From: Escherichia coli
GTDB taxonomy: Bacteria > Pseudomonadota > Gammaproteobacteria > Enterobacterales > Enterobacteriaceae
Direction: 5' to 3' (one strand)
DNA length: 64,000 bases
Assembly: GCF_045037415.1 (NCBI RefSeq)
Contig: NZ_CP173438.1
The first letter of the stretch is position 1. Every line of letters starts with the position of its first letter. The position numbers were made by a program. Of the stretch, positions 60,001-63,000 are shown one piece after another.

Positions 60001-63000
60001 CTTTTGACAGTGAGCGATAAACATCATCGTCACGGATAATCGTCGGGCGGATGAATACCATCAGGTTGCGTTTAGCGCGCTCGGTCGAGGTATAGCGGAA
60101 GAGTTGTCCCACTAAAGGAATATCGCCAAGCAGAGGAACCTTTGACACTTGCTCTTTAGAAAAATCATCCAGCAATCCGCCCAGGACCACCGTTTCACCG
60201 GTTTTAACCAGCACGGCGTTTTGAATAGTACGGGTGTTAAATGTCGGGCCGAGCGTCGAATTAGACGAAGAGTCAACGCTGGAAACCTCCTGTTCTATTT
60301 CGAGCAGTACCGCGTCGCCTTCATTGACCTGCGGAGTGACTTTGAGTTTTGTGCCCACCGTTTTGCGTTCGACAGTATTAAAGACGTTATCCCCAGAAGT
60401 GGTCTGAGAGCCGGATAGCACCGGCACATCCTGACCAACGTTGAAGGACGCGAGTTTATTATCCAGCGTTACGATGCTCGGGGTGGCGAGGATGTCATTT
60501 TTATTGTTACTGGCCAGCGCAGTCAACAATACGCCCCAGTCGCCATTGAAGAAGCCTGCAGCCATGCCATTGTAGGCGCTAAACATATCCCAGGCAGGAT
60601 TCGCGCTGGTGATCCCGCCATTCTTTTTATAATCAGCTACACCTTGCGCAGCGTTAAAAACCGGTAATCCCGTATTGGTAAATTGCTGTGCGCCAACGTT
60701 TTTATTCGCCCATTGCACGCCGAGGTTGAGTCCATTTCCATCCTGAACTTCGACGATGATTGCCTCAACCAGCACCTGTGCACGGCGAATATCCAGACGC
60801 GCAATTACCGTGGCGAGTTTCTCCTGGACGGACTGGTCAGCGGTAATGACCAACGAGTTGGTCTGTTCATCGGCGGTAATGGCCACATTATCCATCGCAG
60901 AAGTAGAAGAAGGCTTACGCGAATTCCCTTTTTCATCTTTCAGCTTTTCGGAAACACCGGTTAGCACTTCCACCAGATTCGTGGCTTTAGCATATTTCAG
61001 GTAATAGACCCGGGTATTTCCTTCCTCGCTCTCTTCTACATCAAGGCTTTTCAGTAATGAAGTTATGCGCTGGCGTGCTTTTTCCGGTCCGCTGATGATA
61101 AGAGAGTTGGTTCGCTTATCCGCCACAATCTTCGCGGAAAGGAGGGCAGGCATCTGGCTTTTACCGTGGCTTTCGCTGATTAATTGATTAAGAATCTCGG
61201 CGAGATCTTCCGCTGATGCATATTCCAGATGAATAATTTGCTGCTTCTCTGTGCCGATGACATCAACGCGCTTTATGACTTCAATCAGTTTATTAATGGT
61301 GGAGGCACGACCGGTCAGAATAAGAACGTTGGAGGGTTCATAATGCACAACATTACCGACGCTACCCGCATCCATCATCTGGCGGAGCAGGGGAGCCAGG
61401 TCACGAGCAGGAACGTTCTCAAGCGGTACGATTCGGGTGACCAACTCATCACCTACGCCTGGACGAGAACTGTCAGCAATCATCCCTGGCGATGTTTTTA
61501 CATTAGCTGAGCGCACCACTTTCAGAAAACCATTGTCCAGCGTGATCACGGAATAACCGTAAAGATCAAGAATACTTAAAAAGAACTGGTAGTACTCCTG
61601 TTGGCTAAACGTATCATTACTGCGTACGGAAATGGTTCCCTGTACCGAAGGGTCGATCAGGATCGTTTTGCCAAGATGCTGACCCACTATTTCCACGAAC
61701 TGGCGGATATCGGCGTTATTGAAGTTAGCGCCGTATTGTTCGTTCTCAGCGTGTCCTGCACAAGGCATGAGTAATGCTGCCAGCAAGCAGCAGGTGATTT
61801 TATTGAGTCCCTTCATTGCGCTGTCCATTCATTCCTGTAAGTTCCGCGACGGAAACATTTATCAAGCGGGGTACGCCGTTGCGACGAATTGTAAACTGAG
61901 CACTTTGTTGAGTTAGCAGTAAACTTAATGCCTGTGAAATCTCATCAGGGTGGGTCAGCGAAAGATTATTGATCCTGAGGGCGATATCCCCAGGTTGCAG
62001 CAAACTGGTGGTAAATGCATTGAGACCCTTACGAGGATTCAATCGAAGACCGTATATCTGTTCTCCATCACGTATAGGTGTGGCGATAATATAATCGGCG
62101 AGTACATTTTGATTTTCCGAATCAGGCTGCTTGATGATGTCAGGTAGCCCTGGATGGAGAGTTACTTTTTCGTAATGCCCGTGAGTTTCAAACACAACGC
62201 TGGTTTTATTTATTTTTCTAATAAACGTTCCCGGCGCTGACTCAAGGGCTTCGTTGAGGGAGTATCGCTTTTGTTCGTTCCCCTCATTAATTAAGACAAA
62301 AGAAGTCTCATCATTCGATGTGAGTACAATGCCATTAAGCGCTATAGAGAGCTTAGGTGTTTCCTGATTAACTGCCACGGGATTTGCATCTTTTACCCCA
62401 GTATGATTTTCGTTGCGCCATAAAGCGGCAAGGCTGAATTCAGACTGAAATGCATTTGTTGGTTGATTAATGATCTGTTCATTTTTAACTATAGTTGTAT
62501 GGAAATAATTCACATTAAAAATAATCAGCCCTATGCTTATAAATGTAATCAATATATTGATGGCAGCATCTTTATTATGATTCGCCAGATGGAAGGGGAA
62601 AGGTAGTGTGGGCACGATGTATGTTCTAATAAAATAGATTGGGTGGGTTGTATATTGACGTTAGTATAAATAGTATTAATGCCGCTTGCATGAATCAAGC
62701 AAAATTTATTTATATTAGTAATATGTATTTAATTAATAAATACATACATTATTTTTATGATTAAGGATAATCAATAATTAAAACAGGAAGTTCTATGTCT
62801 ACGAGAAGAGAAGTCATTCTTTCCTGGTTGCGTGAGAAGCATCAGACCTGGCGTCTGTGCTATTTGTTGGGTGAGGCTGGAAGTGGAAAAACCCGGCTGG
62901 CGCAGCAACTACAAAAAGATAAACATCGCCGTGTGATTACTTTAAGCCTCGTTGTTTCCTGGCAAGGTAAGGCCGCATGGATCGTTACCGACGATAATGC

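Follow-up and report, generated by a model that had tools for sequence, protein, structure and literature searches.

The closest described counterpart of the locus analysed here is the gspA–gspC (b3323/b3324) region of Escherichia coli K-12, which has the same sequence, flanking genes and synteny, and a spacer without any difference; K-12 departs from it in the flanking coding DNA (78 of 3098 sites, about 2.5%) and in having an intact gspO. The gsp operons are described as cryptic and H-NS-repressed by Francetic and Pugsley 1996 and Francetic et al. 2000, as those studies are cited in PMC5797941 and PMC5435950, and in transcriptomics of BL21(DE3) the cluster was without expression in all conditions tested (PMC5435950). 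The spacer has been flagged as an H-NS target (PMC3946193), and an IPOD-HR protein-occupancy peak in the gspA-gspC spacer was termed H-NS-repressed, its authors stating that the precise H-NS location was previously unknown (bioRxiv 10.1101/2020.01.29.924811). The H-NS antagonist SlyA binds the exact 179-bp fragment in EMSA, and its overproduction lifts gspCDEF 2.4-fold (PMC5797941). Genomic SELEX with RpoD holoenzyme places the gspAB and gspC promoters both in the spacer (PMC3946193), RpoS and RpoF SELEX peaks are located inside gspC (PMC5493296), and the region is listed as a 392-bp 'promoter island', gspA(-)/gspC(+) (PMC3661553).

A second E. coli type II cluster, the T2SS 'beta' yghJ-pppA-yghG-gspC-M, has an H-NS- and StpA-repressed promoter according to Yang et al. 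2007, as cited in PMC2094087, and is similar in being silenced by H-NS-family proteins at AT-rich upstream DNA. It differs in that it sits between yghE/yghF and glcA, not beside rpsJ, is not a gspAB/gspC-O divergent pair, and is expressed in some strains (e.g. BL21(DE3); PMC5435950).

In the window (the whole 64-kb stretch of DNA that was analysed) the gspC–gspA intergenic spacer occupies 62616-62794, 179 bp between the divergent gspC (-) and gspA (+), and is the only non-coding DNA between the two operons. The same gene boundaries and 179-bp gap are present in the RefSeq annotation of FDAARGOS_1265 and K-12 MG1655, and the flanking synteny, S10 ribosomal operon (rpsJ)-gspBA / gspC-O-bfr-bfd-chiA-tuf, is in the same order as in K-12. 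Close homologues of gspA have the Pfam domains GspA_C39-like, AAA_22 and PG_binding_1, and the gspC start is without an obvious Shine-Dalgarno sequence. The spacer is very probably the shared control region of the divergent gspAB and gspCDEFGHIJKLMO operons of the chromosomal E. coli T2SS-alpha, a role known for the identical K-12 sequence and one that the earlier note had rightly proposed. The features referred to below are as follows.

51978-52650, minus strand: gspO, last gene of gspC-O, with a 5-bp deletion (one TGGCT tandem copy) near codon 110
61800-62615, minus strand: gspC coding sequence, 271 aa, GTG start at 62615, first gene of gspC-O
62451-62550, no strand: second AT-rich tract, 18-26% G+C, inside the gspC 5' end (membrane-anchor codons)
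62639-62676, plus strand: overlapping gspA-directed promoters, TTGGGT-17-TAGTAT (62639-62667) and TTGTAT-17-TAGTAT (62648-62676)
62670-62698, minus strand: predicted sigma-70 promoter of gspC-O, -35 TTGATT (62698-62693), 17-bp spacer, -10 TACTAT (62675-62670)
62701-62775, no strand: extreme AT core, 8-12% G+C, with long A/T-only runs
62710-62721, no strand: proposed SlyA site TTATATTAGTAA, centred 79 bp upstream of gspA (PMC5797941), its sequence present here
62722-62746, no strand: perfect inverted repeat TATGTATTTA-N5-TAAATACATA, from a repeat search
62733-62761, plus strand: alternative predicted gspAB promoter TTAATA-17-TATGAT, near the ATG, 9/12 to consensus (PMC3946193)
62785-62790, plus strand: Shine-Dalgarno-like AGGAAG, 4 nt upstream of the gspA ATG, kept in L016 (the closest non-E. 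coli relative)
62795-64000, plus strand: gspA coding sequence, ATG at 62795-62797, first 401 codons, continuing beyond the window end; first gene of gspAB

The composition of the gap agrees with the earlier note, which had placed an AT-rich region at exactly these coordinates and quoted from it a string that we find at 62711-62766. The spacer has 22.9% G+C, compared with a mean of 51.3% (sd 5.2%) for all 179-bp windows of the 64 kb, and just 0.016% of these are as G+C-poor; the lowest of them (22.3% G+C) starts at 62617, one base off the spacer start. TpA steps make up 16.9% of spacer dinucleotides and 4.4% of those window-wide, and 0.05% of 179-bp windows reach the spacer value. The AT-rich zone extends beyond 62616-62794 into the 5' end of gspC, and its span of about 62400-62790 corresponds to the 392-bp promoter island.

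Being strongly AT- and TpA-rich relative to the host, the spacer has the character of an H-NS-type target. Matches to TCGATAAATT, the 10-bp H-NS motif of high affinity, number 71 in the window versus 60 expected, which is no enrichment and so uninformative, and the best match to it in the spacer, at 62703-62712, has two mismatches; H-NS binding does not require this motif. We infer that 62701-62775 is the main H-NS nucleation tract, and 62451-62550 may be its downstream partner for bridging. The control by nucleoid proteins that the earlier note expected is in keeping with the H-NS target flag, the IPOD-HR peak and the SlyA EMSA, all obtained with the identical K-12 sequence. SlyA counter-silenced promoters (hlyE/clyA, fimB, leuO and others) are similar in that H-NS-repressed AT-rich DNA is bound by SlyA and activation on overproduction is modest. 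In contrast to those promoters, the proposed site in the gsp spacer is a poor match, with only 6 of 12 positions of TTATATTAGTAA agreeing with the consensus TTAGCAAGCTAA, and the 3' half of the site is not kept in L016.

Sigma-70 hexamer pairs with 17-bp spacing are present on both strands of the spacer. For gspC-O, the K-12 hexamers given in PMC3946193 are unchanged in this strain and both are retained in L016; transcription would start near 62663, with a leader of about 48 nt. A mapped gspC start site was not found in the literature, in which gspA ends alone are listed. The geometry of this promoter, TTGnnT-17/19-TA(C/T)TAT with a GTG start behind a leader of 52-54 nt, is common to the distant relatives L017 and L019, in which GspA is just 37-38% identical and the gspE-D-C / gspA-B-rpsJ arrangement is retained. 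In the other direction, the -10 of the second gspA promoter overlaps the opposite-strand gspC -10 to form a symmetric bidirectional core at 62662-62676, and the 62639-62676 block is 100% kept in L016 save for one G>C change. A table in PMC2760140 lists gspA 5' ends at -97, -112 and -121 in the spacer, plus one at -236, although the reference number given for them there resolves to no gsp paper. The -121 and -112 ends correspond to 62674 and 62683, each exactly 7 nt past a TAGTAT hexamer, and the two hexamers are plausibly the -10 elements for these ends. The alternative gspAB promoter at 62733-62761, whose K-12 hexamers are likewise unaltered in this strain and which in L016 keeps its -10 and has its -35 altered to TCAATA, gets no backing from the 5' ends in the PMC2760140 table.

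That promoters for both T2SS units would be found here, as the earlier note anticipated, is borne out for the identical K-12 sequence by the RpoD SELEX and the gspA 5' ends; the note had held that its reading would fail if start sites never mapped to the region, and published gspA 5' ends lie inside it. In the promoter prediction that it had proposed as a check, hexamer pairs occur on both strands, and a simple scan returns 3 promoter-like sites where 2.5 are expected from composition, which is no excess. The region is listed among the promoter islands of PMC3661553, whose authors' algorithm differs from our simple consensus scan. The bidirectional promoters of Warman et al. 2021, to move to another class, reportedly arise from symmetric -10 elements, with starts typically 18 bp apart. 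Here too opposite-strand -10 elements share base pairs (62670-62676) and have a -35 element on either side, and the DNA is AT-rich and H-NS-bound; the putative gsp start sites, unlike those, would be 20 bp apart.

The spacer is identical to that of K-12 MG1655 at 179 of 179 positions, and of the 3132 complete E. coli genomes that have it, 3127 match it at 99% or more; the gsp cluster is missing from about 42% of the complete genomes of the species. Among seven strains picked for divergence the spacer shows three variants, each in a single strain (1.7 per 100 bp; the genes on either side have ~4.2), and because of these its 'invariance' in E. coli needs tempering to near-invariance. Insertion-sequence (IS) disruptions occur in other strains. 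In L016 the spacer is 86.7% identical, whereas gspA coding DNA reaches 76% and third codon positions 61.4%; the excess over third codon positions is a mark of purifying selection on the spacer. The gspC N-terminus MPTLPF.FHLA.HN is kept in L016 with synonymous changes. We had considered L016 as a second E. coli allele class and rejected this, since it shares no more than about 78% identity with any E. coli genome and thus belongs to another species. A noisy long-read contig with indels (L014) was useless for footprinting, and the only hits in a GspA scan of the genome collection were two contigs resembling E. coli, contaminants of assemblies unrelated to it.

We consider it highly probable that this is the known H-NS-silenced bidirectional gspA–gspC promoter region. 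Sequence identity, composition, conservation and the fit of hexamers to 5' ends were observed here; H-NS repression, protein occupancy, and binding of RNA polymerase and SlyA come from the K-12 literature; and which tracts H-NS uses, that it represses by bridging, and where gspC transcription starts are what we infer in addition. The proposed mechanism has a compact core at about 62639-62698 with overlapping, oppositely directed sigma-70 promoters, whose TAGTAT and TACTAT -10 elements share base pairs and have a -35 element on either side. The AT/TpA-rich tracts in the spacer (62701-62775) and in gspC (62451-62550) flank this core, and H-NS, probably with StpA/Hha, would nucleate on both and coat or bridge them. 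RNA polymerase would then be occluded or trapped at the core, leaving both operons silent in laboratory conditions, and SlyA bound in the spacer may partly relieve the silencing of gspC-O.

A different view, which we regard as unlikely, is that the spacer serves above all to bind a specific activator or repressor, with H-NS merely background and the system switched on in its natural habitat. The literature we found reports no natural inducing signal for the gsp system, and the induction obtained by SlyA overproduction is merely 2.4-fold, both of which leave room for such a factor. Its candidate sites, part of the same doubtful proposal, are ATTGGGTGGGTTGTATATTGACGTTA at 62637-62662, GCTTG-N7-CAAGC at 62684-62700 and the palindrome with two 10-nt arms at 62722-62746. 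In L016 the first of these, a block of 26 bp, is 100% kept, compared with 61% at third codon positions, but it is already accounted for by the gspA -35 elements and the gspC leader. The 10-nt arms of the palindrome are reached by just 3% of dinucleotide shuffles and in L016 carry one compensatory change (T:A to C:G), yet nowhere in the spacer is conservation lower than around the palindrome. For GCTTG-N7-CAAGC both arms are lost in L016, which reads GGTTG...CAAGC with changes, and in literature searches SlyA was the sole transcription factor found for the spacer.

That the spacer is instead AT-rich DNA left over from horizontal transfer and without function, with the real promoters elsewhere, is scarcely credible. 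The patchy presence of the cluster noted above, its lack of expression in laboratory conditions, and promoter-like matches no commoner than composition predicts would all suit a remnant; conservation far above that of neutral sites in L016 would not, and nor would near-invariance in E. coli alongside flanking coding DNA with ~4 variable sites per 100 bp. RNA polymerase and SlyA also bind the spacer in vitro, published gspA 5' ends map within it, and the two operons share no other non-coding DNA. Equally improbable is a small RNA or small protein encoded by the spacer. A 41-codon ORF with a TTG start is present on the plus strand (62639-62764), but stop codons interrupt it in L016, and we rejected it as a gene for this lack of conservation. 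The palindrome could be the centre of a fold in the long gspA leader (z = -1.84), but the gspC and gspA leader folds are not significantly stabler than shuffles (z -0.7 to -1.8), and an Rfam scan of 62200-63200 was without a family match, returning a lone chance microRNA match (E = 0.39).

The earlier note had further suggested that the spacer sequence might indicate whether the secreton of this particular strain is expressible, and had proposed an alignment with strains known to express the T2SS. The comparison made here was with K-12, whose gsp operons are reported silenced, and with other E. coli genomes, and the suggestion does not survive it: because the spacer is identical to K-12 throughout and nearly invariant across E. 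coli, it holds no strain-specific information. The strain-specific defect lies in the gspO frameshift and not in the control region. The gene is labelled 'frameshifted' in the annotation of the identical strain FDAARGOS_1265, and the 5-bp deletion is common to 384 of 3156 genomes. The control region predicts K-12-like silence in this strain, and because gspO is frameshifted in the lineage the system would lack its own prepilin peptidase even if derepressed.

Earlier publications on the identical sequence already cover the region as such, and report that H-NS silences it, that SlyA and RNA polymerase bind it and that it counts as a promoter island. New here are the symmetric -10 core that fits two gspA ends, the finding that distant relatives keep the geometry of the gspC promoter, the purifying selection on the spacer, and the IS disruptions. 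As a discovery this carries little weight, and its practical use is in annotation; the fit of TAGTAT to the 5' ends and the deeply conserved gspC promoter geometry offer precise targets for designed activation. A more speculative proposal, to which we give only a low probability, is that the 60-bp core at 62639-62698 is an anciently conserved symmetric bidirectional promoter whose flanking tracts take part in an H-NS bridge that is opened by a habitat-specific factor at the G/C-containing blocks or the palindrome. If true, this would offer a concrete way into an old question, namely when E. coli switches on its cryptic T2SS and chitinase.

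The locus is the usual 'alpha' type II secretion locus of the E. coli chromosome, with the gene order tuf-chiA-bfd-bfr-(gspO...gspC) <-> gspA-gspB-rpsJ, and the AT-rich gspC-gspA spacer is an already known feature, ordinary for an H-NS-silenced locus. The divergent region described in the earlier note was borne out in both coordinates and composition: the spacer is exactly 179 bp between the gspC and gspA start codons (62616–62794), the boundaries are the same in the RefSeq annotations of FDAARGOS_1265 (identical over the stretch) and K-12 MG1655, and the AT-rich string quoted from it is found at 62711–62766. 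The spacer G+C content is 22.9% versus a mean of 51.3% (sd 5.2%) for all 179-bp windows, and is matched or undercut in only 0.016% of such windows in the 64 kb; the minimum for this window size (22.3%) begins at 62617, one base from the spacer start. TpA steps are at 16.9% in the spacer versus 4.4% in the window as a whole, a level attained by 0.05% of windows. The AT-rich zone includes the spacer as proposed, but its true extent is wider, with a second tract inside the 5′ end of gspC and a segment richer in G+C between the two tracts. The features are as follows:

61800..62615, minus strand: gspC ORF, 271 aa, GTG start
62451–62550: second AT-rich tract, 18–26% G+C, inside the 5′ end of gspC
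62701–62775: extreme AT core, 8–12% G+C
62795, plus strand: gspA start codon, ATG

Two other G+C troughs of the window lie beside chiA: the tuf-chiA spacer (48045–48335; second lowest, 24.0%) and the chiA-bfd spacer (51039–51206; fourth lowest, 29.1%). The former is the upstream region of chiA, the H-NS-silenced substrate of the alpha secretion system, and the machinery and its cargo thus share a compositional signature.

The spacer matches K-12 MG1655 at every position (179/179) and was found in 3132 of 5426 complete E. coli genomes, with at least 99% identity in 3127 of the 3132; a 601-bp query including flanking coding DNA reaches at least 99% identity in only 560 genomes. Among seven strains picked for divergence there are three singleton variants in the spacer (1.7 per 100 bp), against 4.2–4.3 per 100 bp in the coding DNA of gspC and gspA. 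An intact copy is absent in about 26 of the 3132 genomes, and other strains have been hit independently by insertion sequences in or near the control region:

62739–62747: IS1 in NZ_CP148277.1, 9-bp target duplication, separating -35 from -10 in the proximal promoter predicted for gspA
62583–62592: IS1 in NZ_OZ039848.1, 10-bp duplication, in gspC codons 8–11
62358–62859: ISKpn26 in NZ_CP087290.1, deletion of this interval, replacing the entire spacer together with the start of each gene

Interpretation of the spacer as the control region of both operons, also proposed earlier, is supported by literature on the identical K-12 sequence. The gspC-O operon is described as cryptic and H-NS-repressed, SlyA overproduction raises gspCDEF expression 2.4-fold, and SlyA binds a PCR product corresponding to the same 179-bp spacer in EMSA, with a proposed site, TTATATTAGTAA, at 62710–62721 (Curran et al., PMC5797941). 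In genomic SELEX the RpoD holoenzyme binds the spacer, which is flagged as an H-NS target, and the hexamers given are TTAATA-17-TATGAT for gspAB and TTGATT-17-TACTAT for gspC (Shimada et al., PMC3946193). Both are unchanged here (62733–62761, plus strand, and 62698..62670, minus strand, respectively), and the gspAB pair is also found by a promoter scan. Other SELEX peaks are inside gspC for RpoS and RpoF, and inside gspA for RpoF (PMC5493296), and a 392-bp 'promoter island' has been listed for this region (PMC3661553). In IPOD-HR, protein occupancy rises to a prominent peak in the spacer, one that the authors ascribe to H-NS repression, the exact binding location not having been known before, and the alpha cluster is unexpressed in BL21(DE3) under all conditions tested by transcriptomics (PMC5435950). 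When DARS1 was relocated by transposon-based selection, one clone had inserted in the K-12 gspA-gspC spacer (PMC5010248).

Previously reported gspA 5′ ends are at -97, -112, -121, and -236 (Mendoza-Vargas et al., PMC2760140). Mapped onto the window, -121 (62674) and -112 (62683) are each exactly 7 nt past a TAGTAT hexamer (62662–62667 and 62671–62676), with a TTG-type -35 17 bp upstream of each (TTGGGT, 62639–62644, and TTGTAT, 62648–62653); 9 bp separates the two hexamers, the same distance as between the ends. The second TAGTAT occupies base pairs that also form, on the opposite strand, the -10 predicted for gspC (TACTAT, 62675..62670). Both gspAB and gspC-O therefore seem to be driven from one compact bidirectional core at ~62639–62698, symmetric and with overlapping elements, and we infer that their start sites are ~20 bp apart. 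With such a core, 62701–62775 would be part of the transcribed gspA leader, and for gspC it would be upstream DNA; the ATG-proximal TTAATA-17-TATGAT would be only a sequence prediction. Promoter-like sites in a simple scan are no more numerous than composition predicts, and the 10-mer H-NS motif shows no enrichment. Mendoza-Vargas et al. (PMC2760140) also obtained 5′-RACE ends at +19 (gspAp5) and +65 (gspAp6), for which they predicted no promoter. These are at 62814 (gspA codon 7) and 62860 (codon 22), both within the coding sequence, and may reflect RNA processing or initiation inside the gene; between them lies a 5-bp stem with a T-run (62843–62857).

Four loci from other organisms (L016–L019) were retrieved via GspA homologues. 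L016, with a GspA 72% identical in protein and 76% in DNA, is from another species, as its identity to every E. coli genome is only ~78%. Identity in the spacer is 86.7%, versus 61.4% at gspA third codon positions, a comparison that argues clearly for purifying selection on the spacer. Conservation covers the leader of gspC, the block that holds the core promoter, the -10/leader region of gspA and the Shine-Dalgarno sequence. The variable patch (62711–62750) takes in the 3′ half of the site proposed for SlyA, together with a perfect 10+10 inverted repeat, TATGTATTTA-N5-TAAATACATA, at 62722–62746. This palindrome, in the least conserved patch of the spacer, is mildly unusual (3% of shuffles attain its arm length), and in L016 one arm position is changed from T to C and its partner from A to G, a compensatory pair that keeps the pairing. 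The spacer also contains an ORF of 41 codons, which is not conserved.

In L017, L018 and L019, whose GspA proteins are 37–38% identical, the arrangement gspE-D-C <-> gspA-B is kept, with rpsJ next in L017. The gspC strand retains a TTGnnT -35, a 17–19 bp spacer, a TA(C/T)TAT -10, and a 52–54 nt leader followed by a GTG start lacking a Shine-Dalgarno sequence, a geometry that supports the predicted gspC promoter. The gspC gene here likewise has a GTG start with no recognisable Shine-Dalgarno sequence, preceded by an unstructured, C/A-rich leader (62616–62663, minus strand; CAACCCACCCAAU). Equivalents of this leader were compared in L016, L017 and L019; such a start, ~52–54 nt from the -10, persists in relatives whose GspA is only 37% identical, a hint that translation initiation is deliberately weak or otherwise unusual. 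No Rfam family match was found, and the leader RNAs are not unusual in structure. E. coli-like gspA/gspC DNA is also present in assemblies of two unrelated bacteria, Flavobacterium paronense CECT 8460 (tig00000213), where there are many indels and broken ORFs, as is typical of contaminant contigs from uncorrected long reads, and Alkalicoccobacillus porphyridii P16 (a 273-bp contig).

The suggestion that the spacer sequence of this strain might be a guide to secreton expressibility did not hold, as its identity to K-12 predicts K-12-like silence and nothing beyond. The strain-specific lesion is in gspO, not in the control region:

51978–52650, minus strand: gspO, dedicated prepilin peptidase, last gene of gspC-O

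A 5-bp deletion near 52320 removes one TGGCT from a TGGCT-TGGCT tandem; it shifts the reading frame of the peptidase near codon 110, and two ORFs, of 113 aa and 133 aa, remain. In the identical strain gspO carries the RefSeq label 'frameshifted', and the deletion is common to 384 of 3156 E. coli genomes.

The best-supported account of the control region is one of H-NS silencing in four steps. Repression by H-NS, protein occupancy, and the binding of SlyA and RNA polymerase are taken from work on the identical K-12 sequence, the sequence identity, composition, conservation and match of hexamers to 5′ ends were established here, and the tracts used, the bridging and the gspC start are inferred. 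H-NS would nucleate on the TpA-rich tracts flanking the core and then coat or bridge both, and RNA polymerase would be blocked or trapped at the overlapping promoters, leaving both operons silent. SlyA would counteract this silencing in part, for gspC-O.
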